Below, in pieces: positions 7,612 to 56,138 of a stretch of 60,816 bases of DNA. A program made the position numbers and the translations under genes. Every line of letters begins with the position of its first letter. The stretch's first letter is position 1. The stretch is from a virus (lineage: Duplodnaviria; Caudoviricetes). The stretch is taken from the IMG/VR virus record IMGVR_UViG_3300007775_000010, positions 1-60,816 of that record, one strand, 5' to 3'. The notes under the pieces were generated by a model, which did no database searches, was not told the DNA's origin, and saw nothing but the letters and a program-made list of their open reading frames with translations.

Positions 7612-7624
7612 TTCGGTCAGGCGG

Positions 7625-7912: not shown

Positions 7913-8003
7913 GGCTTCGGCGGCTCGCTATCGATCCGCTCAAGCTCGGCGGAGTTCTCCTGTGCCTTGATCTCGCAGACCTCGGTGTCGTCGTCCCAGT
8001 CGT

Positions 8004-8228: not shown

Positions 8229-8245
8229 TGGACACCTTGCCCTCC

Positions 8246-8515
8246 CTATTCGGCCGCGCCGTTCGAAGCGCCGACGCCTTCAAGCGCCTCGAGCCTCTTC
8301 TCGATCGCGCCGATGCGCCGATCCTGATGGTCCCGTCTGCTAGCCTCACGCTGGTAGTACTCGGTCATACGCGTGTACAACGACTGCACCGCCTCGGGCA
8401 CGCGCTCCAGTCGAGCCAACCGCTCGGCGACATCCTCGAGCAGGTGGAATACGTCCGACATGCTCGGGGGCGCGGGGCGGTCTGTTTCGGTCTTGGTGTC
8501 GTGGTCGTCGCTCAC
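8246..8515 (-). CDS. coiled-coil hypothetical protein of the lysis region
   Basis: GGAGG RBS, GTGA coupling, heptad pattern. Confidence 0.7.
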   Translation of the reverse strand: MSDDHDTKTETDRPAPPSMSDVFHLLEDVAERLARLERVPEAVQSLYTRMTEYYQREASRRDHQDRRIGAIEKRLEALEGVGASNGAAE

Positions 8516-9072: not shown

Positions 9073-9219
9073 CAGTGCCCCGTTCCGCGGCTGTAGAACC
9101 TCAAGAAGAGATACAAGAGGGCCCCGCCAGCCACCTGGCGAGCGCCTCGAGCCGTCCTGCGAGCCACTCGCAGAACAGTCCCCAGAGAAATTCGATGGCG
9201 TCGCGTTTCGTCCACTGGC

Positions 9220-24489: not shown

Positions 24490-24804
24490 CTACGTCGCCG
24501 CATCCAACGGACAGAACAAGCTGGGAGGCGTGGGCAAGGGTGGGGGCCCGACGGACGGCAGAGCTGGAGCGGCAAGGGAGAACCCCAGCGCCGGGACGCC
24601 GGGCAGCGATGGCAGCTGGGGCGGCGTGGGCAAGGGTGGGGGCCCGACGGACGGCAGAGCTGGAGCGGCAAGGGAGAACCCCAGCGCCGGGACGCCGGGC
24701 AGCGATGGCAGCTGGGGAGCGCTCGGAAGCGCCGGGAGACCTAGCGGAGGGAGCGCGGGCGGTGTCAGTTGGAACTCGAGCGACGGAAACGAGCACAGCG
24801 ACAT
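24490..24804 (-). CDS. Pro/Leu-rich protein following the baseplate spike
   Basis: Starts immediately after the spike stop; Cys near both ends; contains a 32-aa duplication. Confidence 0.6.
   Translation of the reverse strand: MSLCSFPSLEFQLTPPALPPLGLPALPSAPQLPSLPGVPALGFSLAAPALPSVGPPPLPTPPQLPSLPGVPALGFSLAAPALPSVGPPPLPTPPSLFCPLDAAT
24527..24717. repeat. perfect 96-bp tandem duplication
   Basis: 24527-24621 is identical to 24623-24717. Confidence 0.92.
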
Positions 24805-36755: not shown

Positions 36756-38432
36756 CTAGGCGGACAGTTGCGTGTTGCTCGTGAACACCACGCCGCTCTC
36801 TCGGAGCGCGCGCAGCTCTCGGAAAGCGTCGTCGCGACCGAGCCCCTGGTTTTGGCTGCAGAGGTAGGACACGGCCCGCTCGGTGTCGTTGCGGCCCGCG
36901 TGCTTGCTGACGTCGACCACCTTGCCGCCGCCGGTGGCTCGGTTCGCGTCGTTGCCGAGCGCGAGCGTTCGCGTCTCGGAAGCCGCCGGTGGCGTGAACT
37001 GCGCGCCATCGGGGCCGGCAACGAGCTGCGTGAGCAGGTGAGCGTGCTTCGCCTCGGGCACGCCGTAGTGCGTGAGGAACGCCTTGCGACCGGTTTCCCT
37101 GGCATTCGCGAGCAGCTTGCCCCGGTCGGCCACACCCTCGGGCACCTTCGCGGACTCCTCCCGGATGAGCACAGCGCGATGCGAGGACAACGCGACGGAA
37201 GCCGACTTGTCGAAGCCCTTGGAGGTCAGCGCGGCGTTGACGTCCATCTCGGCCTGCGCCTCGTCGACCTTGGTCTGTTGCGCCAGGGCGGCGTCGAGCT
37301 CCGCCTTGACCGAGTCAAGCTTGCTCGCCGCGTCTCGCAGTTGGGCCACGTTCTCGAGGGCGGCCGGGGCGTCCTTCACACCCAGAGCACCGAGGATGCT
37401 CTGCAGGTCACCGCCGGCGGATGCCAACTCCTGCACAGCGCTCTCGACGTCCGCATCCTCCTGCAGCATCCGGACTGAAAGCGTCACGCGGCTTTTGGTG
37501 AGGATTGCGGCCAGTTTCTTTCCGAGGTCACTGAGTCCCATGGCTTCTCCGGGTGGTGCTTTCGACTGCGTCGACTGATCGCCCTCTGCCAGCCCCCCGG
37601 CAGCCTTGCGAATTTCCGCGCCTAGCTCTTCGAGGGTCGAAGTGACGGGCAGACCGAAGGTCGTACGCAGGGCGGCGATGAGGTCGTCGACCTCGAGACC
37701 CTGCGGGGGGATGCCAGCTCCGCTCGCCCAGCCGAGCACCTTCTCGACCTCGGCCATTGTGGCGGCCGTGTCGGCGGTCGCCGGCAAGCCGAGCAGCTCG
37801 CGCGTCTGCTCCAGCGCCTTCTCGGTGGATCCGGCGGGGTAGCCATAGAACTGGGAGAGCCCCCTGAGCCCCATCCGGGCAGCGGCGATCGGAATGGGCG
37901 TCAGCTCAGTGAGGAACGGCTGATTGGTGAACGCGATGCTGGTGATCTTCGGGCCAATATCGTTGCCGGAGACCCCATCGATGGCCTTTGGGTTGAAGGC
38001 GATCGAGACGTACTGATACTCCTCGTCGGCGATCTGCTGACGGACCTTCTTTCCGAGCTTCGTAAGCGCCCAGAGCTGCGCTTTGCCGTCGCTACTCTGG
38101 CGCACCTCGAGGTCGCGAGCCCACGCTGGGGCAGGCGTTCCGCTCTCGGGAATCGCCCCGAGGAACGCAGCCATTTCGCTGGCGTGCTCGTAGTCATACG
38201 GCACGACGGGAGATGAGCCGTGGCCGTCGTCGCCGAGCTTGAAGCGCGCATCCGCCTTGAAGTTGCGGACCATGGTGGCGAACACATCCGCGTTGAGCGC
38301 GAAGGGACCGGACTTGTGGCCTCGATACTCGCCCTCGGTGGCCACGTGGATCCACTTGACCTCGGGCACCTCGGCGCCGACCGAGGCCTCCTCGAGGCGG
38401 ATCGACGCGGCAAGCAGGAACGGGCGAAGCAT
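36756..38432 (-). CDS. Mu-like prohead protease/scaffold (gpI); probable nested scaffold start at 37541
   Basis: DYEHASE, APAW, IADEEYQYVSIAF, AFTNQPFL; internal GGAGAAGCC-ATG. Confidence 0.88.
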   Translation of the reverse strand: MLRPFLLAASIRLEEASVGAEVPEVKWIHVATEGEYRGHKSGPFALNADVFATMVRNFKADARFKLGDDGHGSSPVVPYDYEHASEMAAFLGAIPESGTPAPAWARDLEVRQSSDGKAQLWALTKLGKKVRQQIADEEYQYVSIAFNPKAIDGVSGNDIGPKITSIAFTNQPFLTELTPIPIAAARMGLRGLSQFYGYPAGSTEKALEQTRELLGLPATADTAATMAEVEKVLGWASGAGIPPQGLEVDDLIAALRTTFGLPVTSTLEELGAEIRKAAGGLAEGDQSTQSKAPPGEAMGLSDLGKKLAAILTKSRVTLSVRMLQEDADVESAVQELASAGGDLQSILGALGVKDAPAALENVAQLRDAASKLDSVKAELDAALAQQTKVDEAQAEMDVNAALTSKGFDKSASVALSSHRAVLIREESAKVPEGVADRGKLLANARETGRKAFLTHYGVPEAKHAHLLTQLVAGPDGAQFTPPAASETRTLALGNDANRATGGGKVVDVSKHAGRNDTERAVSYLCSQNQGLGRDDAFRELRALRESGVVFTSNTQLSA

Positions 38433-39044: not shown

Positions 39045-39293
39045 TCAGGACTGTTCGACGACGATCGTGGAGCTACGCGAGAAGTAGGCCGGGAGGGCCT
39101 CGAAGAAGCGCTTGCCGTCGTCTGGACCGACCAACCCACGCCTATCACGCACGACGCGCTGCTCGAGCATTCTGCGCAGCTGACCGGAGCCCCGCTCCCA
39201 CTTGATGGAGACCCTGTCTCCCTTCAGTTCGAGCGTTGCCTCGAGGCGGCGATCCGAGCCGTCCTGGTTCTGCGATGAGATGGTGAGTGTCAC
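39045..39293 (-). CDS. small protein; candidate immunity protein for the MuF-fused kinase
   Basis: 82 aa; GTGA-coupled to the MuF-kinase stop; last gene before the next promoter. Confidence 0.55.
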   Translation of the reverse strand: MTLTISSQNQDGSDRRLEATLELKGDRVSIKWERGSGQLRRMLEQRVVRDRRGLVGPDDGKRFFEALPAYFSRSSTIVVEQS

Positions 39294-41179
39294 TTGATCA
39301 GCTTGTCGATGGTTTGGAGCTCTGCCGAGTCTATCAGCTCACCCGGAGCGCTGAACGACAGCTCGATTGTATGAGCGATGTCAGGGTCTTCCACCTTCTC
39401 GAGGACATCCCGAGTGAGCCTACCCGTCTGCTGCAGGTGACGGGCCCGTACCAGGGCGGCCCGCCGAGCTGGCTTGGGTATGCCCCGGCGCTCCAGGATG
39501 CGATTCAGATCCTTGAGCTTCAGACCTCGCACGCGCTTGAGGATGTCGCTGTCTAGCCCGACCAGGTCGGCGCCGGGAACGCTCCGAAACCCCTCCGGGA
39601 ACTGGAGCGGGAAAGCGAGCCCGTTGTCGATGGCAATGCAGCGCCCATCCGGCCGGATCATGGCATTACCCAGGTGGCGATCGCAGTTGGCGGAAATGAA
39701 GTCGAGCGCCGTGGTGCGGTTGGCCGTCTTGGCCTCGGCGACGGTGCCAAGTGGTGATTTCAGGAACGTCTTCGCGTCGCTGGCGAACTCCTGAAAGCTG
39801 CCGACGCCCATGCCGGAGCCAGATAGGTCCGCGGCGATGGTCGTCGGCACAACCGTCGCTCCCCCCAGCGCGCGATCCAGGTCATAGGCCGCTGCCTCGC
39901 GCTTGTAGAACCCTCCCTCCTCCCACGTGTCACCCAAGCCCGTCTCGCCGGAGGCGGGCTTGTAAACTGCCCTGATCGTCTTTCCGTCGGCTGTCTCCAG
40001 CTCGACCAGCTGGGTCTGATTGATGCCGCCTCGGAGCCGCTGCTGCGCCCCTCGCACTTTCGCCGACTCCATCTGCTGCGCCAGGCCTGGGGCGGGACGC
40101 TTGGGAGCTGGGCGGTTGCGCGGTCTTCTCGGCGGTGGGATGCGTGCGGGAGGGCTTGGCTGTTGAGCGACTGAACTGGCTGGACGACTCGGTACGCTGA
40201 ACGACCTACGGCCACCGCCGCTCCACCCCGGATCGGGCAGGGGTGTCGGCATGTCCTCACCGCGTACGATCGTGAGCCCCTTTCGCATGCGCAGCGACCG
40301 CACGCGGCATCTGCAATTAAATCCACTGGGCGGATAGGCTCGCCGCCACCAAGGGTCGTCTGCTCGCAGTACCTTGCGATGGGCGCCCTTGTGCGTGACG
40401 CGGCTCCGACTGTCGGCGACCGAGATCCACTGCCACAGCGGCCGCAGCGCGAGCACCTGGGGCTGGGTTTGCTGCTGGTAGCGCCCGCCGTTGTAGGCCG
40501 ACATGGCGCCAGTCCTGAACACGGTCTCGACGTGACTCGGGTTGCGCGGAGTCCACCCGGCGGACTCGAGGCGCTCGTTGACCGCCTTGCGGAAGTCCCG
40601 CAGCTCCGCCCCCTTCGCGACCTGGCGCACGAGCTCCCGCTTGACGGTGTCGACCACGCGCTTGCTCGCGGCGCCGGCGACCGTGAAGGCCTGCGTCCGG
40701 GCCTCGTCGGTCATCGCGTCGAACACGTCGCGCGTGACGGGTGAGCGCCGCTCGAAGCTCGCGATAGCGTCGTCGATCCCCCGGTGAGTGAACCTCGGCT
40801 GCGTATCGAGCAGGATCGGGTGATAGCGTGCTGACACGTACGCACCGAACCGGGCCGGAGCGACGAGGTCGTCCTCCTCGGCCTCGTAGTCCGCATCGAG
40901 GGCACCGAGCATGCCCCCGTGCAGGCTCGCGTCGCCGAAGGCCTGGGCGAACGCGTCGCGGTCGAACCGCTTCGCCGCGCGGTCTATCGCGCGCTTGATG
41001 GCCGCCGGATCGTCGAGGTCCTCGATTGCCTCGAGCAGCTCATCGACCCACGAGCGAACAGCCCGGGTTGCCTTGCGCACCCCGCGCTCGACGATGGCGT
41101 CAGGGGAGCCGAACACCGTGTCGGGCTGGGCTGCGAGCAGGATCCGCCCGCCGCAGTCAGAGCACGACGCGGCCGGCAT
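39290..41179 (-). CDS. MuF (gp30-like) minor head protein fused to a C-terminal PI3/PI4-kinase/HipA-like domain
   Basis: MuF: QAFTVAG, VFRT..AYN.GR, DSRSR..H, WW...PP.GFNCRCRV, PDPGW. Kinase: GGINQT, AVYKP, REAAAY, VPTT, GSFQEF, NCDRHLGN, IAIDNGLAFP. Confidence 0.88.
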   Translation of the reverse strand: MPAASCSDCGGRILLAAQPDTVFGSPDAIVERGVRKATRAVRSWVDELLEAIEDLDDPAAIKRAIDRAAKRFDRDAFAQAFGDASLHGGMLGALDADYEAEEDDLVAPARFGAYVSARYHPILLDTQPRFTHRGIDDAIASFERRSPVTRDVFDAMTDEARTQAFTVAGAASKRVVDTVKRELVRQVAKGAELRDFRKAVNERLESAGWTPRNPSHVETVFRTGAMSAYNGGRYQQQTQPQVLALRPLWQWISVADSRSRVTHKGAHRKVLRADDPWWRRAYPPSGFNCRCRVRSLRMRKGLTIVRGEDMPTPLPDPGWSGGGRRSFSVPSRPASSVAQQPSPPARIPPPRRPRNRPAPKRPAPGLAQQMESAKVRGAQQRLRGGINQTQLVELETADGKTIRAVYKPASGETGLGDTWEEGGFYKREAAAYDLDRALGGATVVPTTIAADLSGSGMGVGSFQEFASDAKTFLKSPLGTVAEAKTANRTTALDFISANCDRHLGNAMIRPDGRCIAIDNGLAFPLQFPEGFRSVPGADLVGLDSDILKRVRGLKLKDLNRILERRGIPKPARRAALVRARHLQQTGRLTRDVLEKVEDPDIAHTIELSFSAPGELIDSAELQTIDKLIK

Positions 41180-43106
41180 CGTCCATCGCCCGCCACGGGG
41201 CGCCCGCCTTGGCCCTCACGACGCCGCAGTCGCGGCACTTGCGCTTGCGCCCATGCCCGCAGCTGTCTGCCTTCGAGCTGTTGAGCGCGCTGGCGACCTC
41301 CGCTCGCTCCTCGATGTCGGGCGGGGGCTCCGCCGGCATCTGCCGCGAGTCGCCGATCGCCTTCCAGGCCACCGCCCACTTCGGCTCGCCGGTGGCCTCG
41401 TCGAGCTCCACGTCGCGCGATCGCTCCACTCCGCACATGGGGCAGCGGTTGGGCCGGCCGTGCTCGCACCGCTCGATCCCGAGCTCGGTCATCTTGCGGG
41501 CGAGGTCCCGCGCCTCCTCGGGCGTGTTCGGCTCGGGATCGCCCGTGGGGGGCATCTGCGAGGGGGGCTCCTCGATGCCCGGGAGGGACTGCTGTGCGGG
41601 TCCTGGTGGCGCTGGCGTGCCTTCGGGCAGGTTCACCTCGGCGGTGGGCTCGGGGCGGAGCTCTCCCGGCTGCGGAGCCTTGCCGGGCGGGTAGACGACC
41701 GCGATTCTCGGAGCCGGAGCCGGTTGTCCCATGGGCGCCTCGGGGTGCACTTGCACGAGGATCGCCTCTCCCTCGTTCGGCGGGCGGAAGCCCGAGCGCT
41801 CTCGGGCGTCATCGACGCCGACCGCGAGCCCGATACTCGCCGCCTTCTCGATCGTGTCGAGTTCTTCCTTTGGATCCTTGCGCTGCTCAGGCTCGATGAA
41901 AAACCGGGGGGCGTTGATGAGCTCGTGCGGGCCGCGGTTCACGGCGATGATCGCGTCGACGAGGTAGTCCTCGATGCTCTCCGCGCAGTCGGCGCCGTCG
42001 CCCTCGATTATGAGGTCCTCCTCGGTCTTGTGCACCTCGGATTGGTTCGAGCCGAGGCCCGCCGGCTGGGCGTCGGTGGTGCTGGTGGAGCCGAGTACGA
42101 GCTTGGAGATCGTGAGCTCCGCGTGCTCGATGGTGTCCTTGTGCACCTCGCCCTTTGCGTCAGGCGAGACCACCGTGGCTCTGAGCCCGCGAGCGAGTCG
42201 CGCCGTGTTCGTCGCTCCGAGCGCCTGCAGCGCGTCGAACGACTCCTCGAGGTCCTCGTCGTTTGGGTTCTCCTGGTCCTGCTCGAGGATGCGCCAGGGC
42301 TTGCCGAACAGCTCCATCAGGATCAGCCGCTCGCGAACGCCGAACCGGCTGAAGAAAGTCCAGTACAGGATCCGCGGGCAGAGCCCCTCGCGCTCAGGGT
42401 AGTCGCTGAAGAGACGCGGCTTCCGCACAACGAACTTGAAGGGGACTCCGCGCTCGATGGGATAGCCGGCGGTGTCCGAGAAGTCTCCACCCCACTGGTC
42501 CGCATCAACGATGCGCAAGTCGCGCTGTTGCCCGAACGAGAGCCGCCGAGGATGCATCCAGTGGAGGTCCACCGCCCGGTAGGGCCACGGGCCGCCGACG
42601 AACTGCCACTCGACCTCGAGCGCCGAGCGGCCGTCGAAGCTGGCCCATGCCAGATCTCGGAGCCGCGAGCGAAAGCGCTTGAGCCCCCGCATCTGGCTCT
42701 CGACCTCGCGTTGGTAGTCGCGGGCCTTGTCTCGATCGACGCCGGCGCCGCTGGCCGGTTCGGTGCGCCAGGGGAGGGAGGTCACCCGGTTGAGGCGCTT
42801 CTGCAGCACCGAGTTCGCGTGGCCGCTGAGGCTGATCGACTCGCGCCCGAGGTCCGCCATGGGGCGCATGAACCCGTTGTTCGCCGACCGGATCGTGTAG
42901 TCGATGCGGCTGAGGTCGAGGCTCCGGCCGTAGTGGGTCCGGTAGTTCTCGATGCGCTTCAGGTGCGAGTGCTGCACCGTCACGAGCGCCTGCCGGTCGA
43001 GCGCCTGCGGGTGCTTCGGGGGGAGTGCGGTCAGGGTGCGGGCCTGCGTGTCGCGGCGCTGGATCGTCTCGAGCTGCGTTCGTCGCCGCGGGATGTATCG
43101 GTGCAC
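41157..43106 (-). CDS. portal protein (Mu gp29/DUF935-like) with a Pro-rich, zinc-finger C-terminal extension
   Basis: LQKR..., GRSALEVEW, ELFGKPWR, ISKLVLGST, EVH. Confidence 0.88.
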   Translation of the reverse strand: MHRYIPRRRTQLETIQRRDTQARTLTALPPKHPQALDRQALVTVQHSHLKRIENYRTHYGRSLDLSRIDYTIRSANNGFMRPMADLGRESISLSGHANSVLQKRLNRVTSLPWRTEPASGAGVDRDKARDYQREVESQMRGLKRFRSRLRDLAWASFDGRSALEVEWQFVGGPWPYRAVDLHWMHPRRLSFGQQRDLRIVDADQWGGDFSDTAGYPIERGVPFKFVVRKPRLFSDYPEREGLCPRILYWTFFSRFGVRERLILMELFGKPWRILEQDQENPNDEDLEESFDALQALGATNTARLARGLRATVVSPDAKGEVHKDTIEHAELTISKLVLGSTSTTDAQPAGLGSNQSEVHKTEEDLIIEGDGADCAESIEDYLVDAIIAVNRGPHELINAPRFFIEPEQRKDPKEELDTIEKAASIGLAVGVDDARERSGFRPPNEGEAILVQVHPEAPMGQPAPAPRIAVVYPPGKAPQPGELRPEPTAEVNLPEGTPAPPGPAQQSLPGIEEPPSQMPPTGDPEPNTPEEARDLARKMTELGIERCEHGRPNRCPMCGVERSRDVELDEATGEPKWAVAWKAIGDSRQMPAEPPPDIEERAEVASALNSSKADSCGHGRKRKCRDCGVVRAKAGAPWRAMDDAGRVVL

Positions 43107-43142: not shown

Positions 43143-43373
43143 GAACTGGCGCACGCGGCGCACGAGCGCTTCACCGGCGCGTCGGCCTCGGGCTCCGGGG
43201 GCGGTTTCGACCAGGAGCTCGCGGCTCAGGCGCGTCGCCTCGTGCCTGTGGGATACGGCGGACCGCTCGAGCTGATCGGCAATGGCGCGCAGCTGCTTCG
43301 CTGTGTGCTCAAGGGCCTCCGCTCGGCCTTGGGCGCGGCCTACCTCGATGAGGGCGGGAGTCTTGGAGGTCAT
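43128..43373 (-). CDS. hypothetical protein (81 aa)
   Basis: ATGA coupling, GAGG RBS. Confidence 0.6.
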   Translation of the reverse strand: MTSKTPALIEVGRAQGRAEALEHTAKQLRAIADQLERSAVSHRHEATRLSRELLVETAPGARGRRAGEALVRRVRQFFGAQ

Positions 43374-44260
43374 CGCCTCAGCTCCTTCGCCTTCCGGATG
43401 AGGATCGAGCGTATCTGCTGGGCGCGCCGGCGGCCACCGCTGAGGGAGGGCTCGACGGGTTCAGACTCGACGGCGAGGTGGTCCAGCACGAGCGGCACGG
43501 CGCCGTCCGGTGTGTTCAGCACGGCCACGATTAGACCCCGGGCGCCCTGGCCCGGCAGGTCCGCCCAAACGGTGCCCTCGGTGAACTCCACCGGCTCGAG
43601 TCCCGTGAGCGAGCGCAGCTCGTCGCGGTCCGGAGTGAGGCGCTGGCCCTGGAAGGGATCGGGGTGCGGTCCGGCTGACGAGTGCACAGCGTTGACCCCC
43701 GTCCCCTGTGCAGCAGTGATGCGCCACTCGCTGATATGCCGGGACAGGTCCCTGACCACTTCGGAAAGAGTCGTGACCCCCGCGTCGAGCTTCAGGGCGA
43801 GATCACGGCTGCCCGTGATCTCAGCGGAGACGTAGCCTATGTGGCGCGAGCGCCCACGGTGCCACCGCACCACGTAGGCCAGTCTATCGAACATACGCTC
43901 AAGCTCCTGGCTCGGAGGCAGGCGCACGGCAGGGCGTGCGGGCGGCCATGTTTCAAGTCTCAGGTCCTCGGGGGGAGTGGCGACGGGCTCCTCTCTCGCT
44001 CGCACCCGCACGCGCTGCCGGGTCTCATCGATCAGCCTCTGCCGGGTCTCATCGATCAGCCTCACGATGTCCGACTCCGTCGAGTCTCTGGACACCAGTA
44101 ACTGCAGCGGAGGCAGGTTTGGGTTGTCTGGCTCGAGCTGTAGCCGCGTCCACTGGCCGCACTGGACGACCGCGCGCAACGTCGGACCTCGGTTCAGCTT
44201 CCACATGAGCTCGACCACTTCCTCACGCTTGCATTCTCCAAAACTCGGAAATCTCGACAT
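43370..44260 (-). CDS. hypothetical protein (296 aa) between terminase and portal
   Basis: AGGAGG RBS; contains a 24-bp tandem duplication at 44015-44062. Confidence 0.7.
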   Translation of the reverse strand: MSRFPSFGECKREEVVELMWKLNRGPTLRAVVQCGQWTRLQLEPDNPNLPPLQLLVSRDSTESDIVRLIDETRQRLIDETRQRVRVRAREEPVATPPEDLRLETWPPARPAVRLPPSQELERMFDRLAYVVRWHRGRSRHIGYVSAEITGSRDLALKLDAGVTTLSEVVRDLSRHISEWRITAAQGTGVNAVHSSAGPHPDPFQGQRLTPDRDELRSLTGLEPVEFTEGTVWADLPGQGARGLIVAVLNTPDGAVPLVLDHLAVESEPVEPSLSGGRRRAQQIRSILIRKAKELRR

Positions 44261-48443: not shown

Positions 48444-49337
48444 TTACCGTTTCGGCAGTGACGCAATCTTGGCGGCGAGCGCGTCGTGCTTAGGGTCTCT
48501 CGATGTTCGGGCGAGGGCTTGCTCGTGCTCCGAGCCCGGGGCAGGCGTCTTGCCGCGGTCGTTCATCACCGCGACGCGCAGGTAGTTCGTCAGCCGCTCC
48601 GCCGGCCATCGCTTCTGCTCGGCGCAGAGCTTGCCGGCAATGCGCGTGACCACTTGCTCGGCGACATCGCGACGAGCACCAGCCATCTCGCATCCAGAGA
48701 AGAATTGCTCGCCCAACCACGCGACGATCTCGCTCGGCTTTGGGCAAACCAAATGGCTCGTAACAGCGTCCTCGTCCTCCTCCGTCGCTGCATTACGCGC
48801 GCTAACTGACAGGTCTTTAGGAAGAGGATTACTGGCTAAAATAGATCCGGAGCCGGTACCGGAGCCGGATCCAGACGCGCGCGGGGCTGGCTCGGCTGGA
48901 CCAGCCGGCTGGTGCTTCGGCTGGAACCTGCCGGCTGGTCCGCGGCTGGCTCGGCTGGCTCGTGCTTTGCCACCCAGCTGGCTAGGTGTCGGCTGGTTCG
49001 GCTGGTCCAGCCGGCTGGGTTCGGCTGGTGATGGCGGCCCTGTTCCCTTCTGCCCGTACCGCTCCGCCCAGTCGACGAGTACGTAGCTGTCGCCCTCCTG
49101 GCGCCAGAGCCCGACCCGCAGGAGCGCTTTGGCGTACGCCCGCCCCTTCGGGTCAGGGAAGAGCGTCAGCGCCACCTTGACCGGGAAGCGGTCCACGGGC
49201 TCGCCCGCTTTCTCGCGGGCCTCCTGGCGCCGCCTGCAGTAGCAGTGCGCGTAGTCATGCCAAGCCGAGGCGGCGATGCCGGCCTCGATGCGCCGCTCGT
49301 CCTCGTTGGCGTGGTCGTCCAGGAAGACCCAAGTCAT
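48444..49337 (-). CDS. putative phage replication initiator
   Basis: MTWVFLDD...AG..A...YC...LLRVGLW...DW N-terminal domain; iteron-coded low-complexity linker. Confidence 0.65.
   Translation of the reverse strand: MTWVFLDDHANEDERRIEAGIAASAWHDYAHCYCRRRQEAREKAGEPVDRFPVKVALTLFPDPKGRAYAKALLRVGLWRQEGDSYVLVDWAERYGQKGTGPPSPAEPSRLDQPNQPTPSQLGGKARASRASRGPAGRFQPKHQPAGPAEPAPRASGSGSGTGSGSILASNPLPKDLSVSARNAATEEDEDAVTSHLVCPKPSEIVAWLGEQFFSGCEMAGARRDVAEQVVTRIAGKLCAEQKRWPAERLTNYLRVAVMNDRGKTPAPGSEHEQALARTSRDPKHDALAAKIASLPKR
48800..49030. repeat. putative replication origin: about 11 CGGCTGG iterons plus an adjacent AT-rich tract
   Basis: CGGCTGG at 48893, 48906, 48918, 48932, 48943, 48952, 48990, 48999, 49012, 49022; palindrome CCAGCCGGCTGG twice; AT-richer 48800-48850. 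Confidence 0.65.
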
Positions 49338-49786
49338 CCGGTGAGCGCCTCCTTGTCGTCGGTTGCGACCAGCGCTCCCGCTTTGGCGACGCCAGGGCCC
49401 ACCTCGAGGGACGTGAGCAGCGCGTCGAGCCGCGCGGCCAGGGTAGCGTTTACGGCGCGCATCTCGTTGACGCGCCGAACCCCGGACATTGCCGTGGTGT
49501 GATCCCTGTTGCCCACGGCGCGGCCTATCTCGGGGTAGGAGAGCCCGCGATGCCAGAGCAGCCAATACGCGGCGAGGCGGGCTAGTGCGACCGTCTTGGA
49601 GCGCCCACGCCCCTTGATGTCGTCCACCGGGACGTCAAACCGGAGCGACACGGCGCGCAGTATCGCGTCAGCGCGGGGTGTGATGTCGCTCGCGCGCTCC
49701 ATGGCCTTCGCTTGCCACTGCAGCCGGCGCATCTGTCGCATCTGTCGCTGCGCCTGGTCCCGGTGCCAACGGTCCGTTTCGGTCAT
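49334..49786 (-). CDS. stand-alone DnaA C-terminal (domain IV) HTH protein
   Basis: RSKTVALARLAAYWL...LSYPEIGRAVGNRDHTTAMSGVRRV. Confidence 0.85.
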   Translation of the reverse strand: MTETDRWHRDQAQRQMRQMRRLQWQAKAMERASDITPRADAILRAVSLRFDVPVDDIKGRGRSKTVALARLAAYWLLWHRGLSYPEIGRAVGNRDHTTAMSGVRRVNEMRAVNATLAARLDALLTSLEVGPGVAKAGALVATDDKEALTG

Positions 49787-50028
49787 GACCGCGTCCTCCG
49801 TCTCCGCTTGCCGCGCTTGACGGCGGGTGGCAGGTCTTGGGGCTTGATCTGTCGGCGAGCTATCTCCTCGAGGGACGGAACGAACACGCTGCGCGGAGGC
49901 AGCACTGTGATTCGAACATCCTCGACATGACCAACCGTGCGACCGTCGACCCGGATCTCTGCGTTGCGCTGCTTGATGTACGCCTCGGCGTCGCGCTGGG
50001 CCCGCAGGTATCGCTTGACGGTCATCAT
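49783..50028 (-). CDS. hypothetical protein
   Basis: ATGA coupling on both sides. Confidence 0.55.
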   Translation of the reverse strand: MMTVKRYLRAQRDAEAYIKQRNAEIRVDGRTVGHVEDVRITVLPPRSVFVPSLEEIARRQIKPQDLPPAVKRGKRRRRTRS

Positions 50029-50633
50029 GCCGCGCGCCTCCGTCGCTTGGGCACCTCGGGAGGAGGAGGCAGCGCGAGCGCGTAGCCTCCGAGGCCGCTC
50101 AGCAGCCAGTTCGCCACGACGAAGGCGTCGGCCTGGTCAGCGCTCCAGTCGTCAGGCATGCCCATGGTCCGCAGCGTTTGAAAGACCACGTCCTTCTGTT
50201 TCGGCGGCTTCGGCCCGCCTTTCTTCGCGCGCGTCGGTGGAAGCTTTCCAAGCAGGAGCTTGCGCGCCGTCGCCGGCGCCACGGCGACGATCGACAGACC
50301 CAGGGCGTGCCGCAGTGCGGCCTTGACCAGTCCACCGAGCTCGCCGATCGCGTGCGTGTGACTTCGCCCCGGGACGGACCGCATGGCGTACTGCTCGACG
50401 ACGAGATGGGTCGGGCGGTGGTCCTTCGCGAACGCGAGCACCGAGTTGGAGATCTTGACGATCCGCTCAATGCGCTCGTTCTCCGTGGCGTCTCGCGGAA
50501 TCTTCGGCTCGAGCTTGCCTCTGTGAATGCTCGACCAGTTACCGTCCCAGTCACCCGCCATGAGCACGAGGCCCGTGGCGGTTAGGCTGAGATCGAGCCC
50601 GAGTACACGCGGTGTCTCGATGACCGCGCCCAT
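50025..50633 (-). CDS. ruvC: RuvC-like Holliday junction resolvase
   Basis: VLGLDLSLTATG, LVVEQY, ELGGLVK, DQADA. Confidence 0.85.
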   Translation of the reverse strand: MGAVIETPRVLGLDLSLTATGLVLMAGDWDGNWSSIHRGKLEPKIPRDATENERIERIVKISNSVLAFAKDHRPTHLVVEQYAMRSVPGRSHTHAIGELGGLVKAALRHALGLSIVAVAPATARKLLLGKLPPTRAKKGGPKPPKQKDVVFQTLRTMGMPDDWSADQADAFVVANWLLSGLGGYALALPPPPEVPKRRRRAA

Positions 50634-50636
50634 TCG

Positions 50637-51416
50637 CTACTCCGCCGCCTGGGTGCCCGGGATGGAGGTTTGCGCCGCGACCCACTCGAACCCAGTGTCG
50701 ACCTGCTCGGAGAGCTCGGCGATCACCTCCTCGAGGGTGTGGATCTCCTCGTTGAAGATCTTGTTGGCGCGGGTCTTCTCTTTGACCTTCTTCTGCAGCT
50801 TCCGCTCTTGCTTCGCGAGCTCGCGACCGCGCTTCGTGATGTCTTCCTCCGAGAGTTCGCGCTGCACCTGACCGGTGCGGTCGGGCCCTTCCTTCTCCTC
50901 GGGTGGTTCCGAGCGGCCCTTCTTCTTGCCGCTTCGCGTCTTGGGACTGGGGGTGGGGCTCTTCTTTGCCTTCTTGGCTGCCATGTCTCTCTCCTCGGTT
51001 GTGGCGGGCGTGCCGCCGGTCATCGGTGGGGTGCAGTCGTCTCCGTAGACGCCGTCACCGGGTGCGGCATCGGGGTCCTCGTCGCGGTAGCGGGCGAGAC
51101 ATCGCTCCGTCTCGCCCATTGGCTGGTAGGTGCCGGGAGCGGGCGAAGGCTTGCGGGGTATCTTCCGCGGGGGAGTGCCGCGCTCACACCACGGGCAGCT
51201 CAGTGGCTTCTCCGCGGCGACGCCGTGCGCCTCGCAGTAGTACGGGCAGCGCTTCGTTGGCCAGTTGGCGAGCTGCACCACACCGGCGCCAGACCATCTC
51301 GGGTCCATGTAGTAGAGGACCGGCTTCGGGCAGCACTGCCCATTGGTTGGGGCCTCGAGGCACTTGTCGCAGCCCGGCTCCATGCCGCGTCGGATGGCGT
51401 ACTCGGCTCCGAACAT
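50637..51416 (-). CDS. hypothetical protein with a Cys-rich N-terminal half and a Lys-rich coiled-coil C-terminal half; strong internal start at 50984
   Basis: Continuous ORF; GAGGAGAGAGAC-ATG at 50984. Confidence 0.55.
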   Translation of the reverse strand: MFGAEYAIRRGMEPGCDKCLEAPTNGQCCPKPVLYYMDPRWSGAGVVQLANWPTKRCPYYCEAHGVAAEKPLSCPWCERGTPPRKIPRKPSPAPGTYQPMGETERCLARYRDEDPDAAPGDGVYGDDCTPPMTGGTPATTEERDMAAKKAKKSPTPSPKTRSGKKKGRSEPPEEKEGPDRTGQVQRELSEEDITKRGRELAKQERKLQKKVKEKTRANKIFNEEIHTLEEVIAELSEQVDTGFEWVAAQTSIPGTQAAE

Positions 51417-52192
51417 CAGCCGCGGCCCCGGTCAGGTTGACAGAACAGATCCCACGTTCGCGGGAACCGGTCGGCGACCATTTCACCAACAGCGCTAGCG
51501 TACTGACGGATCTCCCACTGCGCGTTGGAAGCCATGCGCAGCGTCAGGAACGCCAGCCAGTTGCGCAGGTTCGCGCTCGCGCGCATCCGTGAGTATCGCC
51601 CCACTGGTAATAGGATTCGTGCGAGCTCCTTTGGAACCCCATCATCGAGCGCTGCTTCGTATCCGGTCTGAAGCGCGTCGTAGCCCACAATGAGAGCTTC
51701 TCGAAAGCGATCGGCTGCCCTAACTGTCAGCTCTCGAGCTCCCGCCGCGGTGCCAGCCTGCTTCGTGAGATGCCCGCCGCCGGCCAGGAGTCGCTCGATC
51801 GTGGGCACGTAGTTGAGATTCGGTAGCGGAGCGTAGCGAGCGCTCATCTCGTTGTAGCTCTGCGTCCGGTGCCGATGCCATTCCCGGAAGACGAAGATCG
51901 GCGCTTGCACCTCGATGACAAGGCCGGCCATCTCGAACGGGGTCGCGTGGTTGTTCCGGTACAGGAATGCGAGGAGCTTCTCGTCGCCCGGCACCTTCAC
52001 GGTTTCGCTCTCGGTATGACGCTCGTCGTCACAACGACCGTCCGTCTTGCCGCAAGAGCCGCAGGCATACTTCGGCCCCCAACCCTCGAACCCCTTCTGC
52101 GTCGACATGCGGGCGGCCTCGATGATCCGCTCATCGGAGCCCCAAGACTCGACCAGCTCGACGTAACCGTGATCCAGGACGTCGATTCTCAC
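51416..52192 (-). CDS. thyX: FAD-dependent thymidylate synthase
   Basis: HATPFE, RHRTQSYNEMSARY, KELARILLP, NLRNWLAFLTLR, AQWEIR. Confidence 0.95.
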   Translation of the reverse strand: MRIDVLDHGYVELVESWGSDERIIEAARMSTQKGFEGWGPKYACGSCGKTDGRCDDERHTESETVKVPGDEKLLAFLYRNNHATPFEMAGLVIEVQAPIFVFREWHRHRTQSYNEMSARYAPLPNLNYVPTIERLLAGGGHLTKQAGTAAGARELTVRAADRFREALIVGYDALQTGYEAALDDGVPKELARILLPVGRYSRMRASANLRNWLAFLTLRMASNAQWEIRQYASAVGEMVADRFPRTWDLFCQPDRGRG

Positions 52193-52566
52193 GACTGCAC
52201 CTCACGCTCGACACGCTCGATCATCCGCTGCAGCGCCGACGCATCCCAGCCACTGCGGTGATACAGGAAGAGCTCACGGAGCACGTCGCCAAGAAGGCCG
52301 CGATCGACCAGGGCAACGGCGCGCCCGGCATCGAACCACGCCTTGAGGCTCTCGTGTCCTGAACCTTTCTGCGGCCGCCCGGTCTCTCGCCTCAGATACC
52401 AAAGAGCCTTCTCGAGATCCTGGCGCTCCGCGCCCTTCTGGCCGGAGCGCCACAGGTACTTCACCGCGTTGCCCAGGTTGAACCCGATGTGCTCGCACAC
52501 ATCAATGGCCTCGACCCCGGACGGGTGTGCGTTGTAGTGAGGCGGGTGATTGACAGGGTCGCTCAT
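52189..52566 (-). CDS. DUF3310 domain protein
   Basis: DPVNHPPHY...EAID...FNLGNAVKYLWR...DLEKALWYL. Confidence 0.88.
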   Translation of the reverse strand: MSDPVNHPPHYNAHPSGVEAIDVCEHIGFNLGNAVKYLWRSGQKGAERQDLEKALWYLRRETGRPQKGSGHESLKAWFDAGRAVALVDRGLLGDVLRELFLYHRSGWDASALQRMIERVEREVQS

Positions 52567-52811
52567 CGCTTACGGTGCTCCTCGGCTTGTGGACACGTGA
52601 CGAAATGCGAGACGTACCGCCGCCCCGAGTCGAAGCCGAGGGCGACCTGCCCGGCTGTCGGCCCCCGGCGGCTCACGTGCGCGACGCTATGCGCGTCGAC
52701 GTAGACGTTGCCGTCGTCGCGCGGCTCGGGGTCGAGCGGGATAGGTCGCCCGTTCTCGGTGCGGGCCCAGAGCAGCGGGGCGCCGCATGATGTGCAGGTC
52801 CCTCGGTTCAC
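52563..52811 (-). CDS. small zinc-finger phage protein
   Basis: [10 protein letters not shown]...PLDPEP...SHFVTCP. Confidence 0.75.
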
Positions 52812-53329
52812 TGTGAGTGCTCCCGAAGCACCGGTAGGTGCCTACTCTGCATGATCTTCGAACACGCGATCTCCTGCAGCTGGCGAGCGCGCTCGCGCGT
52901 CACGTTGAGTAGCGCCGCTACCTGCTCAAGCTTCGCTCCGCCGCGATCCGCAACGTCGAGCGCGCATGTAACGCCGAGCTCGTGCACTTCGACGTCGGGA
53001 AAGTTGAACTTGATCGACCCGTTCGAAGAGACATCTAGATACAGGTGATGCTTGCAGGATACCCACGGACAGGGGCGTTGACCGTACTGGCAGTCTCGAC
53101 GAACCTTCGGACGCCTCGGTCCTGTTTCAGGCGCCGGGGGATTCAGGCGCTCCAGGCGATTCAGGCGCTCCAGTTCCCGCCGCGGTACGGTCACGGCGCG
53201 GCTGCCATGCTTTCGGATGGATCGCGCGCGGTAGTACTCGATGTGGTGCCGGCAGTAGTTCTTTCCCGGTTCGACATGCGATGAGCAATTGAGGCAGACC
53301 CCATCGACGCGGTCGGCAGTCCTGTGCAT
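52808..53329 (-). CDS. second Cys-rich plus sigma-70 region 4 regulator (paralog of 47514-48002)
   Basis: [16 protein letters not shown]...CALDVAD...[12 protein letters not shown]; extra N-terminal CxxC...CxxH. Confidence 0.8.
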
Positions 53330-53526
53330 CACGAGCACCCCTCCTCCGGCCGCGGCAGGAACCATGCCCAGGCGCGAATCCGAAACTCGATCTGCGCCTC
53401 CGCGGCGCAGGTGTCCGGAGCGGCAACACAGTCGAGGCAACGCTCCGAATCGCCCGAAAAGCAATCAAGCGACATCCGCCCGAGACAGGCCACGCACATC
53501 CGGCGCTCGCAGTCGATGAGACTCAA
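53329..53526 (-). CDS. small Cys-rich hypothetical protein
   Basis: CVAC, CLDC; coupled on both sides. Confidence 0.55.
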   Translation of the reverse strand: MSLIDCERRMCVACLGRMSLDCFSGDSERCLDCVAAPDTCAAEAQIEFRIRAWAWFLPRPEEGCS

Positions 53527-54041
53527 AGCCCTGCCTCCTCAATCCGCCCGCGAATCACCCAGCCGAGATCGCTTAGAAACCGTGGAGCTATCGGATCGCG
53601 GCGCAGGTAGGAGTCGACCGCGTCGAGTACAATGGATGCACGCGCGTTGTCCTCGTGCTCGCGCATGCGTGGTGTATTGAGCACGCCGATCACCGGCGGC
53701 ACGCTCAAGCCTTCCGCGGTATGCGCCTCGAAGATCGGGCGCCCATCGTCGTCGACAAGGCATTCGTCGAGCTCGTGGGCGAGCATCCTGAGGAGCGCCG
53801 TGCGGATCTGCGTCGGGACGTCGATGTAGCTCTCCGGTCGTATCTCGTTGCAGAAGATGATCCGAAGCGGTTCACCTGAGGTGCGCTCTTTGACCTCAAC
53901 CTCGACCCTCAGCGTTTCGGCTGGCCGCAGCTCGTTTAACCAGCTGTTGCCCAGACCGATCGCCCGCACAGCGATGCTGAGCGGTAGCAGCCACACACCG
54001 TCGGTGATGTGGTGGCGCGAGTCGCGCGGGTCACCGCTCAT
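53523..54041 (-). CDS. hypothetical protein (HELDE motif)
   Basis: ATGA coupling. Confidence 0.6.
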   Translation of the reverse strand: MSGDPRDSRHHITDGVWLLPLSIAVRAIGLGNSWLNELRPAETLRVEVEVKERTSGEPLRIIFCNEIRPESYIDVPTQIRTALLRMLAHELDECLVDDDGRPIFEAHTAEGLSVPPVIGVLNTPRMREHEDNARASIVLDAVDSYLRRDPIAPRFLSDLGWVIRGRIEEAGL

Positions 54042-54316
54042 GCGGCCCCCCTGGCGCACGTGCGGCACAGGCAGCCGTCCACCGCGCATCCCGCACAGAT
54101 CGGGATAGCGCAGTAGCCGCACCGAAACTGAGTGACGTCGCCGGCGCCGCAGCTCGGGCACCGGTGCTCCCTGGCGGCACGGACGCGGCGCTCAGTGTCA
54201 GCCCGCGCTGCCAGCTGGCGAATCTGCGCTGCGCGGCTATCGACGAGTGCGATCACGACGGACCCGACCAGCAGGCAGCCGGCGAGGATTGCGAGGAGGG
54301 TGATGCCGTCGGTCAC
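54038..54316 (-). CDS. membrane-anchored zinc-finger protein
   Basis: N-terminal TM helix followed by four CxxC pairs. Confidence 0.6.
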   Translation of the reverse strand: MTDGITLLAILAGCLLVGSVVIALVDSRAAQIRQLAARADTERRVRAAREHRCPSCGAGDVTQFRCGYCAIPICAGCAVDGCLCRTCARGAA

Positions 54317-55260
54317 GCACCCCCCTTTGCGAATAGGTCACCCTGCGGCGCGGGCTCGTTGTGCCCCCGATTGTCTCGCTTCTTTCGCTTCTTTCGCGTG
54401 CACGTGGCACCTCGCCGAACCGAACGCACGTCGCCACCAGTGAGCAATCGCCGCATCGCCTCGAACTCGGCGAAGTCGCCGCGCTCGAGAATCGCGCACA
54501 GCTCGTCCACGACGCTCGCCCCCTCAGGCGTCGTCATGGACAGCATGCCGGGCACGTTCTCCATCGCGAGCGCCTTTGGCTGTATCTCGCAGACGACACG
54601 CCGGAACGAAACCGCCCAAACGAACGGATTGCTCTCCCACGAGCAGCGCTTCGCATTCAGCCCGTCCCACAACTCGCGGAATGCTTCCCGCTGCTCGTGC
54701 TCGAGCACGTACGGAAGCTCGACCACGGAGTAATCTATCGGCATGCCTTCGGCTGCGATGTCTTCGGTGGTGATGTCCTGCAGCCGCTCGAGGCGCACGC
54801 CGGTCACGTCGAGGTTGATGCGGGAGGCCCACCGAGGCATGTGGATTGATGGGCGCCAGCGGATCGAGTGGTCGTTCTTCGCAGCGGCTACCCACCGCTC
54901 TGCGGCTTCAGCTGTATTCGCAATCGGAGCAAACGAGTTGTCCGCGCGAAACCCGATGCCATCGGTGCCATCTGTCAGCTCCTCTGGACGCCAGCACTCG
55001 CGTACCCAGAGCCTGTCCCCCGCAACTCCGTACGGGCAATAGCGCTTTATCGATTCTGCGAAGTCGGACCATTCGACAGCGAAGACTCGGTCGCGCCACT
55101 TCCAGCCCGATGGGCGGTGTAAGTCGAGACGGCCGACCGCTTTCGTGTTCGGCAACGTCCGAACCGGTTGCGGATTGACGAGCCGCCGTGTCTGCGTCTT
55201 TTTCCCAGCGAGGATGGCGCGGACCATCTCGCCCGAGAACAGGATCGGACGCTCACGCAC
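54313..55260 (-). CDS. ASCH/PUA-like protein fused to a C5 DNA methyltransferase motif-VI fragment
   Basis: RPILFSGEMVRAILAGKKTQTRR...WRPSIHMPRWASRI...NPFVWAVSFRRV, then EIQPKALAMENVPGM. Confidence 0.75.
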   Translation of the reverse strand: MRERPILFSGEMVRAILAGKKTQTRRLVNPQPVRTLPNTKAVGRLDLHRPSGWKWRDRVFAVEWSDFAESIKRYCPYGVAGDRLWVRECWRPEELTDGTDGIGFRADNSFAPIANTAEAAERWVAAAKNDHSIRWRPSIHMPRWASRINLDVTGVRLERLQDITTEDIAAEGMPIDYSVVELPYVLEHEQREAFRELWDGLNAKRCSWESNPFVWAVSFRRVVCEIQPKALAMENVPGMLSMTTPEGASVVDELCAILERGDFAEFEAMRRLLTGGDVRSVRRGATCTRKKRKKRDNRGHNEPAPQGDLFAKGGA

Positions 55261-55335
55261 GGAAGCACCTCCCAACCGCCCACCCCGCGCCGATCAGCGC
55301 GAGGTCGCGGCAGTAGCGGATGACGAGACGGACCA

Positions 55336-55680
55336 TCAGAAGGCGAGCTCCCCCTGGTCGTCCTCGATCTCATCGTCGTCGGACCCAGTCCGCTCGGGGA
55401 GCTGCGGAGACCAGTCCGCCGGCTTGACCGGATCGATCCCGAACAGCCTGTGAGCCCGCGCCGTCGCGACTTCCTCGGTGCACGGATGCATTTCGAATAC
55501 CGACGTCGGGCGGATAAACTTCGTCACCGTCGCCCCGTCCTGTCGAGGCACGTCGACGCGCAGGAACCCGGCGCCGGCGATCGTCGCCTCGCTCACCAGG
55601 CCCGCTAGCGTCCGGTGGCCCATGATCTCCACGATCGCCCACTGCTTGAAGACTTCCGGTTCGTCGCTCATCCGGGTCAC
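55336..55680 (-). CDS. conserved phage hypothetical protein
   Basis: WAIVEIMGHRTLAG...FLRVDVP. Confidence 0.75.
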   Translation of the reverse strand: MTRMSDEPEVFKQWAIVEIMGHRTLAGLVSEATIAGAGFLRVDVPRQDGATVTKFIRPTSVFEMHPCTEEVATARAHRLFGIDPVKPADWSPQLPERTGSDDDEIEDDQGELAF

Positions 55681-55808
55681 CTCGTCCGTTCAGGGGTGCA
55701 TGCGTCACTGTGTGATCCCTGCGTCGCCCGCACCGATTGCTCGCGGGCCACCCTGCGGGCCCAGCCGCGGGTCAATGACGTGTGTGCAGTAGTCGACGCA
55801 GCCACGGG

Positions 55809-56138
55809 TCAGGCCTCTGTCCCCGTTCGCGACTCCGGCGGCACGTCGCCGAGCAGTGAGTCGAGGTATGCGAGATAGCCGTCCCGAGGCAGCGCCAGCG
55901 GGATCCACGCGGGTTGCCGGCTGCCCTCGATCCAGTCGCGCACGACGCGCTCATCGACGCCCACGTGCCGCGCAGCCTCGCGGCGGCTCCACCGGAGCAC
56001 TGACAGCGCGTGCACCAGTGCCAGGCCGGCACGGGCCTTGCGAGAGGACCGCAGCGATGCTTGGCACTTGGCTACGGATGGACCCCTAAGGGTGGCGATG
56101 CGGTCGCGGAGGTCGGCGATTTCGGGAGCGATGCTCAC
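55809..56138 (-). CDS. XRE/Cro-like HTH protein
   Basis: WSRREAARHVGVDERVVRDWIEGSRQP. Confidence 0.7.
   Translation of the reverse strand: MSIAPEIADLRDRIATLRGPSVAKCQASLRSSRKARAGLALVHALSVLRWSRREAARHVGVDERVVRDWIEGSRQPAWIPLALPRDGYLAYLDSLLGDVPPESRTGTEA

Follow-up and report, generated by a model that had tools for sequence, protein, structure and literature searches.

The stretch of DNA analyzed here, hereafter the window, comprises all 60,816 nucleotides of IMG/VR record IMGVR_UViG_3300007775_000010, a 60.8-kb virus of the Caudoviricetes that is rated 100% complete and carries its structural genes on the minus strand. Within its head genes lies a gene for a 629-residue protein in which a MuF minor head domain is joined, through a linker, to a C-terminal kinase domain, and the end of this gene overlaps a second gene that encodes a protein of 82 amino acids. 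The small gene was found to accompany this type of kinase across uncultured phages, and the relationship between the two proteins is the subject of this report. The gene pair and its features, with expect values given as E, are as follows.

39290..41179, minus strand: MuF-kinase gene, 629 amino acids (coordinates include the stop codon), with Pfam matches to MuF and PI3_PI4_kinase; PHROGs family phrog_220
40301..40648, minus strand: MuF domain, residues 178-293 (PF04233, E 1.2e-17; TIGR01641)
40094..40228, minus strand: Pro/Arg-rich linker, residues 318-362, with 21 Pro or Arg among its 45 residues
39293..40093, minus strand: C-terminal kinase domain, residues 363-629, modeled with AlphaFold2; PI4KIIalpha is the top match
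40013..40030, minus strand: Gly-rich loop GGINQT, residues 384-389, aligning with the GSSGSY loop of PI4K2A
39959..39961, minus strand: Lys407 within AVYKP (residues 404-408), the putative lysine for binding adenosine triphosphate (ATP); invariant, aligning with VFKPK of PI4K2A
39665..39688, minus strand: catalytic loop NCDRHLGN, residues 498-505 (D500, N505), aligning with NTDRGNDN of PI4K2A
39620..39631, minus strand: metal-binding IDNG, residues 517-520 (D518), with an invariant Asp
39045..39293, minus strand: gene for the 82-residue putative partner, whose GTG start overlaps the kinase stop by 4 nucleotides

An earlier note on this DNA had described a MuF domain with a Pro/Arg linker behind it, a kinase domain with five intact motifs, and a short open reading frame (ORF) coupled through GTGA to the kinase stop codon. 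All of these were borne out. The MuF domain and the linker are as listed, the motifs GGINQT, AVYKP, REAAAY (residues 427-432), NCDRHLGN and IDNG are all intact and in place, and the junction reads aaGTGAca, so that the GTG start of the 82-residue ORF overlaps the TGA of the kinase gene. In an alignment of 14 MuF-kinase proteins, residues K407, E428, D500, R501, H502, N505 and D518 are invariant. Across 48 kinase-domain sequences the Lys, the D-R-x-x-N of the catalytic loop and the Asp of IDNG were again invariant, and the loop His and the Glu of REAAAY were nearly so. The Pfam PI3_PI4_kinase model (PF00454) matched at 30.4 bits against a cut-off of 27.1 and covered only the catalytic-loop segment, residues 488-527; the SCO1664 family (TIGR03843) reached 57.7 bits, below its NCBIfam cut-off of 172.4. 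A profile built from the 48 relatives matched human PI4K2A over both lobes with an E of 7.4e-23, followed by PI4K2B (8e-18), FAM20A/C (1e-12 to 1e-9), Vps34 (1e-4) and CtkA (0.04). The stretch AIDNGLAFP is identical between the window kinase and PI4K2A.

The AlphaFold2 model of the kinase domain gave a predicted local distance difference test score (pLDDT) of 91.9 and a predicted template-modeling score (pTM) of 0.91. Foldseek ranked PI4KIIalpha and PI4KIIbeta first (E 6.4e-9 to 2e-7). In an unfiltered comparison with 48,161 solved chains, from which all structural Z scores in this report are taken, the best match to the kinase model was human PI4KIIalpha (4pla_A), with a Z of 20.1 and a root-mean-square deviation (rmsd) of 3.2 over 234 residues at 24% identity. 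Hydra Fam20 (13.5), CtkA (12.9) and Fam20C (12.6 and 12.2) came next, followed by Legionella HipT (11.2), E. coli HipT (10.8), and MavQ, Shewanella HipA and actin-fragmin kinase at 10.5 each; E. coli HipA scored 10.2. Hence each of the comparators that the earlier note had proposed for a fold check, namely HipA, PI4K, CtkA and actin-fragmin kinase, matches structurally. Its label "PI3K/HipA-like" stands at the level of the superfamily, but the nearest relatives are the type II phosphatidylinositol (PI) 4-kinases and the SCO1664-like group rather than HipA. In the ESM Atlas, the neighbors of the kinase were bacterial "PI3/PI4-kinase domain" and SCO1664-family clusters at a template-modeling (TM) score of about 0.74, with the SCO1664 family being the closest named bacterial neighbors. 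An assignment to the HipA family was rejected, as there was no HipA_C or HipA_2 match in Pfam and the Z scores were 10-11 for HipT and HipA versus 20 for PI4KII; hhalign of the window kinase against E. coli HipA gave a probability of 54% over 75 columns, confined to the catalytic loop. On the strength of the motifs and the predicted structure, we are firm in describing the C-terminal domain as a catalytically complete kinase fold of the type II PI4K/SCO1664-like branch. The Gly-rich loop falls 22 residues into the domain, which therefore starts right at that loop and appears to be a "core kinase" that lacks an N-terminal subdomain. Lipid, protein and sugar kinases are all found among the nearest relatives, and these therefore do not point to one class of substrate.

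The portion of the protein ahead of the linker was recognized by several family models. Phage_Mu_F (PF04233) scored 65.1 bits against a cut-off of 29.6, the SPP1 gp7-type minor capsid domain TIGR01641 scored 46.3 bits against 39.65 in NCBIfam, and the PHROGs label of the whole protein is phrog_220, "minor head protein and DNA pilot" (E 2.8e-48). SPP1 gp7 is described in the consulted part of PMC5576092 as a portal-binding protein present at 1-2 copies per capsid. As judged by these family matches, the MuF part is a minor head protein of the type that is seated on the portal in few copies per capsid, and by its likeness to other MuF proteins the MuF-kinase would be packaged and injected. Like the MuF toxins, it combines a variable C-terminal domain with a small ORF of less than 150 amino acids directly downstream, in this case one of 82. 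The C-termini within the sampled MuF lineage were found to be a kinase, an ADP-ribosyltransferase, domains of unknown type, or none.

The 82-residue ORF has guanine-plus-cytosine (GC) fractions of 0.63, 0.47 and 0.81 at the three codon positions, a coding-like pattern that matches the neighboring genes. A word-based search with the 82-residue protein alone found only itself; the family was found through the ORFs directly after related kinases, which in most loci are 76-98 amino acids long, are mutually similar, and begin at most 40 nucleotides from the kinase stop, often with a 4-nucleotide overlap. An alignment of 18 members displayed the C-terminal signature P-x-DG-x-x-[FYW]-x-x-A-L ... G/S-S. 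Searching 5.8 billion proteins with the profile returned 16 further members besides that of the window, all of them named "hypothetical", and the hidden Markov model (HMM) of the family matched the window protein with an E of 1.4e-26. On these sequence data, the ORF qualifies as a real gene belonging to an unannotated family of about 82 residues.

A scan of IMG/VR with a kinase pattern gave a set of 32 viral loci (named below by L numbers). In 22 of these a member of the small family lies directly beside the kinase gene (HMM, E<=1e-3), and weak matches at full sensitivity that carry the same signature (L023, L025/L026, L030 and L032) raised the count to 27 of 32. Two kinase contigs are cut short, namely L024 and L012, the latter right after the kinase; L028, L029 and L031 gave no convincing small-family match at full sensitivity. 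In L014 the small-family gene (6074-6286) is on the opposite strand and still immediately adjacent to the kinase. In L027 the kinase is fused to a portal protein, and the small gene follows this fusion, ahead of a separate MuF gene.

A second sample, of 74 loci, was picked solely on the MuF N-terminal region, whatever the C-terminus. The raw counts were 15 loci with both kinase and small gene, one with the kinase only, none with the small gene only, 51 with neither, and seven that could not be assessed. When clustered at 90% identity (50 clusters, 45 of them assessable), 12 clusters had both, one had only the kinase, none had only the small gene and 32 had neither; the Fisher p of 4.5e-10 overstates independence, since the clusters are related to one another. 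The co-swap check suggested in the earlier note, that is, whether the kinase domain and the small gene are exchanged together, was thus positive: the small gene is present in 12 of 13 kinase clusters and in 0 of 32 kinase-less ones. The lone exception, L108, holds only a partial kinase-like segment inside a 1296-residue protein. The kinase-less MuF relatives comprise short proteins as well as long ones with ADP-ribosyltransferase, intein or unknown C-termini; in L090 (3810-6548, and the same in L092) the MuF protein is split by an intein, with Hint and intein-splicing matches. Three isolated kinase-less phages, the best INPHARED matches to the MuF part, contained no small-family member at E<=10 (0 of 3).

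Searching from the opposite direction, the loci found with the small protein had a kinase upstream in 8 of 8 cases in IMG/VR (known contigs) and in 3 of 3 new metagenome loci. Some of the loci scanned with the family HMMs had also gone into building them, and matches in those loci arise by construction; most of the kinase-bearing loci in the MuF-lineage sample were likewise contigs seen before, with L086, L107 and L108 being new. The independent evidence for the linkage is the absence of the small gene from kinase-less loci, together with the new loci. Natural fusions were also observed. In P0004 the kinase (residues 67-372) and the small domain (492-548, E 2e-8) are in one chain, and in the L032 ORF at 6947-8470 the small domain comes first and is followed by the kinase. 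On a sequence match with an E of 0.01, P0003 may be a third such fusion; a linker of the N-P-x-Q-P-R ... G-G-Q-F type at the joint of the L032 protein is present in P0003 too. The small gene tracks the kinase domain and not the MuF carrier, and by comparative genomics the 82-residue protein is identified as the cognate partner of the kinase.

An AlphaFold2 model of the 82-residue protein, made with the 18-sequence alignment, had a pLDDT of 94.3 and a pTM of 0.81 and contained six strands and two helices. According to the consulted parts of PMC10627512 and PMC9325769, HipS serves as antitoxin to the kinase HipT, whose Gly-rich loop and ATP site it blocks. Among the 48,161 chains, E. coli HipS (7ab3_B, chain B of HipBST) ranked first, with a low Z of 4.1 and an rmsd of 3.9 over 70 aligned residues. 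Residues 8-108 of Shewanella HipA ranked second (Z 4.0), Legionella HipS third (7vkb_B, Z 4.0; the 7vkb structure is that of PMC9325769, as its consulted part states), and residues 2-106 of E. coli HipA fifth (Z 3.9), so that one and the same small domain, aligned over the appropriate residues, accounts for four of the five best matches. In the ESM Atlas, the neighbors of the Atlas's own model of the small protein were Couple_hipA, HIRAN-linked HipS-type and DUF3037-bearing clusters, and the HipS and HipA N-subdomain ranks agree with this independent lead. Searches of other kinds returned little. Pfam, PHROGs, NCBIfam and PADLOC held no match to the small family, the family profile found nothing below an E of 0.49 among PDB sequences, and BFVD yielded only uncharacterized phage proteins (best E 2.6e-3). 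From the model, we regard a HipS-like fold of the 82-residue protein as probable but not established.

Relatives of the kinase were collected by an exhaustive HMMER search with residues 363-629 as the query, which returned 1740 representative proteins with an E of at most 1e-3, 370 of them reaching E<=1e-10; the kinase is therefore not unique to this phage. Their carriers were assessed with a Pfam scan of 63 proteins, made up of seven from an earlier search and the top-ranked part of 150 that were listed; P0024 and P0033, which are too long, and the remaining 90 of those listed were left out. Among the 63, a MuF protein with a C-terminal kinase was seen 17 times, a portal three times and an ADP-ribosyltransferase three times. 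Several giant relatives hold two to four kinase copies; P0010, P0012, P0027 and P0058, at 1500-3200 amino acids, have 3-4 copies each, and P0012 adds GDPD, alpha/beta-hydrolase and glutamine-deamidase toxin domains.

The 32 viral loci supplied 26 non-duplicate kinase ORFs for a Pfam scan. Twelve carried MuF (E<=0.01), one Portal_Mu (L027) and one Phage_min_cap2 (L028); the added domains were ADP-ribosyltransferase in two, methyltransferase in one and AAA in one. These loci have a portal gene upstream and head protease, scaffold and capsid genes downstream, and they span several unrelated types of head module with GC contents of 30-70%. The kinase-on-head-protein architecture is common in uncultured phages. 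Among isolated phages in INPHARED, 382 records matched the whole 629-residue protein in its MuF part only and none covered 80% of the query, and the kinase domain alone had no tblastn match. Single-protein scans of IMG/VR and GTDB genomes found no relative; the genome scan with the kinase pattern gave only three loci in bacterial metagenome-assembled genomes (Patescibacteria, Saccharimonadales and Izemoplasmatales).

Variants of the arrangement were seen among the viral loci. L022 (5989-7932) and L033 (998-1810) have a second kinase gene after the small gene, in the order kinase, small, kinase, and no second small gene was found in either. In L032, three consecutive ORFs (4611-10169) contain four kinase domains of this family. 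L002 (3828-7127, and the same in L003) encodes the kinase followed by an ADP-ribosyltransferase domain in one chain, and its downstream ORF of 160 amino acids matches the small family in the C-terminal half only, the N-terminal half having no Pfam match. The second effector domain could have its own partner in this extra half.

The placement of the gene pair in the window is that of a head module, with a portal gene on one side and protease/scaffold and capsid genes on the other. The two flanking genes recognized by Pfam are the following.

41157..43106, minus strand: Mu-type portal gene, directly upstream of the MuF-kinase gene (PF06074, E 1.9e-51)
36756..38432, minus strand: Mu-I-like head protease/scaffold gene, downstream (PF10123, E 8.1e-15; phrog_328)

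The earlier note held that the 82-residue ORF closes the operon, which is incorrect. Head genes resume 41 nucleotides on, on the same strand, with an ORF of 114 amino acids whose ATG is at 39004, and no terminator-like site was found on the minus strand of the head genes. After this ORF come a 74-residue gene (phrog_2293), the Mu-I-like protease/scaffold gene, a phrog_673 gene and the gene for the major capsid protein. The head module is Mu-like, yet a non-exhaustive scan of about 75 window ORFs against family libraries identified no integrase, transposase or repressor. No tRNA gene was detected in the window. Between the portal and putative terminase genes, a 296-residue ORF without a family match (43370-44260, minus strand) repeats the peptide LIDETRQR exactly. 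Elsewhere, the regions 2489-7053 and 49334-57139 hold genes for an HNH endonuclease, SbcD-like and SbcC-like proteins, a RuvC-like resolvase, a thymidylate synthase, a nucleotide-kinase-like protein, a protein with a DnaA C-terminal helix-turn-helix and a ParB-like/DUF6551 protein. A 325-residue ORF near the tail-fiber end of the structural region (9220-10197, minus strand) contains a trypsin-family serine protease domain (Pfam Trypsin, E 4e-42), which is unusual for a phage, and the tail/baseplate region contains a tandem duplication of 96 nucleotides in two copies that are 99% identical (24523-24714).

The reading that we consider best, and hold with moderate confidence, is that of a kinase carried in the capsid, injected, and held inactive by a HipS-like partner. 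A kinase-plus-regulator cassette would have been grafted onto a capsid-internal carrier protein. The 82-residue partner would bind the kinase near the Gly-rich loop and the ATP site, by analogy with HipS on HipT, and would keep it inactive in the virion-producing cell. The non-covalent partner could then be lost on packaging or during passage through the tail, such that the kinase would be active only after entering the next host together with the DNA, where it may phosphorylate a host target for takeover or counter-defence.

Several observations weigh against this reading. Packaging and injection are argued by analogy with other MuF proteins. The structural match to HipS is weak, a Z of about 4 lying in a non-diagnostic range that may reflect a common arrangement only, and Foldseek of the small-protein model against the PDB gave nothing (best E 0.31). 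None of the 18 small-family members matched Couple_hipA or DUF3037 in Pfam, PF13657 was not found in the window, and hhalign of the small family against the HipA N-terminus gave a probability of 0.4%. Recognizable small genes are missing from 5 to 10 of the 32 viral kinase loci, and in the three bacterial metagenome-assembled loci the kinases are stand-alone or giant with no small gene nearby, which speaks against a universal link. When sorted by sequence, the kinases and the small proteins give the same three groups, with agreement in 20 of 20 loci (Mantel rho 0.69, reached by 0 of 2000 permutations), but this congruence adds little because linked genes co-vary without interacting. The natural fusions are equally in keeping with an inhibitor and with a regulatory or activating subdomain built into the chain. 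Finally, the roughly 75 scanned ORFs included no integrase, transposase or repressor, and a role in lysogen immunity is therefore without support.

The point about the fusions leads to the alternative that survives best, which we nonetheless regard as doubtful: the small protein may be an obligatory subunit of the kinase, acting as an activator, a specificity factor or a chaperone for folding or packaging rather than as an inhibitor. It would then be the counterpart of the N-terminal subdomain that HipA has within its chain, and the pair would act together and might be co-packaged. That the small domain and the kinase are fused in one chain in both orders, and that the small-then-kinase order mirrors HipA, are consistent with this proposal, as is coupled translation, which gives equal amounts of the two proteins; a phage with no detected lysogeny genes also has less need of immunity. 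However, every free-standing partner of the HipS or DUF3037 type characterized in the consulted parts of PMC10627512, PMC9325769 and PMC12548924 neutralizes its kinase. Stand-alone and multi-kinase proteins with no small domain are also common, which argues that the kinase core is generally independent of it.

An unlikely alternative is that the locus encodes a classical MuF polymorphic toxin and immunity pair for inter-bacterial competition, with the kinase killing or arresting sensitive cells and the small protein protecting lysogens. The architecture, in which a MuF domain precedes a variable C-terminus and a small ORF comes next, fits the definition given in the consulted part of PMC5576092, and within the same MuF lineage the C-terminus varies between ADP-ribosyltransferase, unknown and none. 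The small gene, however, is part of the late head operon, which a lysogen would not express, the non-exhaustive scan of about 75 window ORFs detected no lysogeny gene, and kinases are mentioned 0 times in the main text of PMC5576092. That the kinase acts in the producing cell or in the capsid during morphogenesis, on phage proteins, a small molecule or a lipid, instead of being an injected effector, is improbable: the gene does sit in a morphogenesis module and its nearest solved relatives do include lipid and sugar kinases (PI4KII, a Fam20-type xylosylkinase and MavQ), but 32 of 45 related MuF clusters have no kinase, which indicates that the domain is dispensable for head assembly, and the kinase travels with ADP-ribosyltransferase and other effector-type domains.

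Extending the proposal of an injected, partner-restrained kinase, we tentatively suggest that phages have repurposed, as an effector that is activated by injection, a kinase and antitoxin split in the manner of HipT/HipS, the kinase being of the type II PI4K lineage. If this were true, the association of HipS-type regulators with the wider PI3/4K-HipA-Fam20 kinase clade would be ancient rather than an invention of the Hip systems, and the closest non-eukaryotic relatives of PI4KII would be phage weapons.

A variable C-terminal effector on a MuF protein, with a small gene after it, is already a known arrangement, and so are kinases within capsid-delivered polyvalent proteins. What appears to be new is the type II PI4K-like kinase on MuF and portal carriers together with a conserved, unannotated partner family of about 82 residues for which a HipS-like fold is predicted. 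In open-access text, supplementary tables of the MuF and polyvalent-protein papers aside, neither a PI3/4K-type kinase on MuF nor the small family was found described. Capsid-delivered cargo, of which MuF toxins and polyvalent proteins are the examples, is a known idea with very little experimental backing, and kinases are emerging as broad anti-defence tools of phages. The present system is a compact two-gene cassette, a 267-residue kinase and an 82-residue partner, with confident models of both and named catalytic residues; many uncultured phages that differ widely in GC content and head type carry it, which makes it testable in laboratory strains. It also provides an unannotated small-protein family whose only known property is strict linkage to one type of kinase. 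The regulatory logic suggested here, in which the partner would block the kinase until injection, is directly testable.

Among known systems, the protein kinase gp0.7 of phage T7 is comparable in that it phosphorylates many host proteins and disarms defences (PMC13645617, consulted part). It differs in being expressed early from injected DNA, with no head tether and no cognate small partner, and the two kinase families are unrelated. The HipA-like kinase with DUF3037 (PADLOC candidate PDC-M66/DS-6) resembles the window genes as a two-gene pair of kinase and neutralizer. As described in the consulted part of PMC12548924, DUF3037 neutralizes the HipA-like kinase in that defence system, and deletion of the DUF3037 gene is toxic. 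That system is a host anti-phage defence, whereas the window pair is carried by a phage, and in PADLOC neither window protein matched; only the kinase of a relative did so, to PDC-M66A (E 8.6e-6).

The MuF polymorphic toxins of temperate phages (Jamet et al., 2017; PMC5576092, consulted part) share with the window protein the MuF domain, a variable C-terminal effector, the small ORF downstream and the location in a head module beside the portal. The terms "kinase", "PI3" and "phosphatidylinositol" have 0 occurrences in the main text of that article, to which this count is limited. In contrast to those toxins, the window partner belongs to a defined, conserved family, and no lysogeny gene occurred among the scanned window ORFs. 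Polyvalent proteins (Iyer et al., 2017; PMC5512222, consulted part) are multi-domain, capsid-delivered proteins that include kinase domains, among them a MuF fused to a zeta-toxin-like kinase, and ADP-ribosyltransferase and methyltransferase co-domains of the same kind occur among relatives of the window kinase. By description in the consulted part of PMC5512222, however, the polyvalent kinase group is of the Ser/Thr/Tyr type, is without a C-terminal subdomain and is found mainly in Verrucomicrobia-Chlamydia and Bacteroidetes; that part mentions no small cognate partner for these kinases.

The type II phosphatidylinositol 4-kinases (PI4K2A/B) are the best match of the window kinase in both sequence and structure. 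The phage domain is about 100 residues shorter than PI4K2A, lacks its inserts, and has DRHLGN where PI4K2A has DRGNDN. As to lipid activity of the PI4K2A kind, the kinase family spans phages of 30-70% GC, and it is unlikely that the hosts all make PI.

The closest parallel in design is provided by the Hip modules. The window kinase differs from these in not being of the Hip family by sequence and in belonging to another branch of the fold, and the likeness of its partner to HipS is structural only, at a Z of about 4. Unlike the Hip modules, the window system has no HipB-type regulator, and its kinase is tethered to a virion protein. According to the consulted part of Gerdes et al. (PMC8262856), there are core kinases without the N-subdomain that have genes for HipS-like putative antitoxins downstream (hipJS and hipIN), as well as one family with the kinase and a HipS-like domain in a single chain. 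As in HipBST, hipJS and hipIN, the window pair consists of a core kinase and a separate protein of about 80-100 residues whose predicted fold resembles the missing subdomain; the gene order, with the small gene after the kinase, is that of hipJS and hipIN, and the window pair too has fused relatives.

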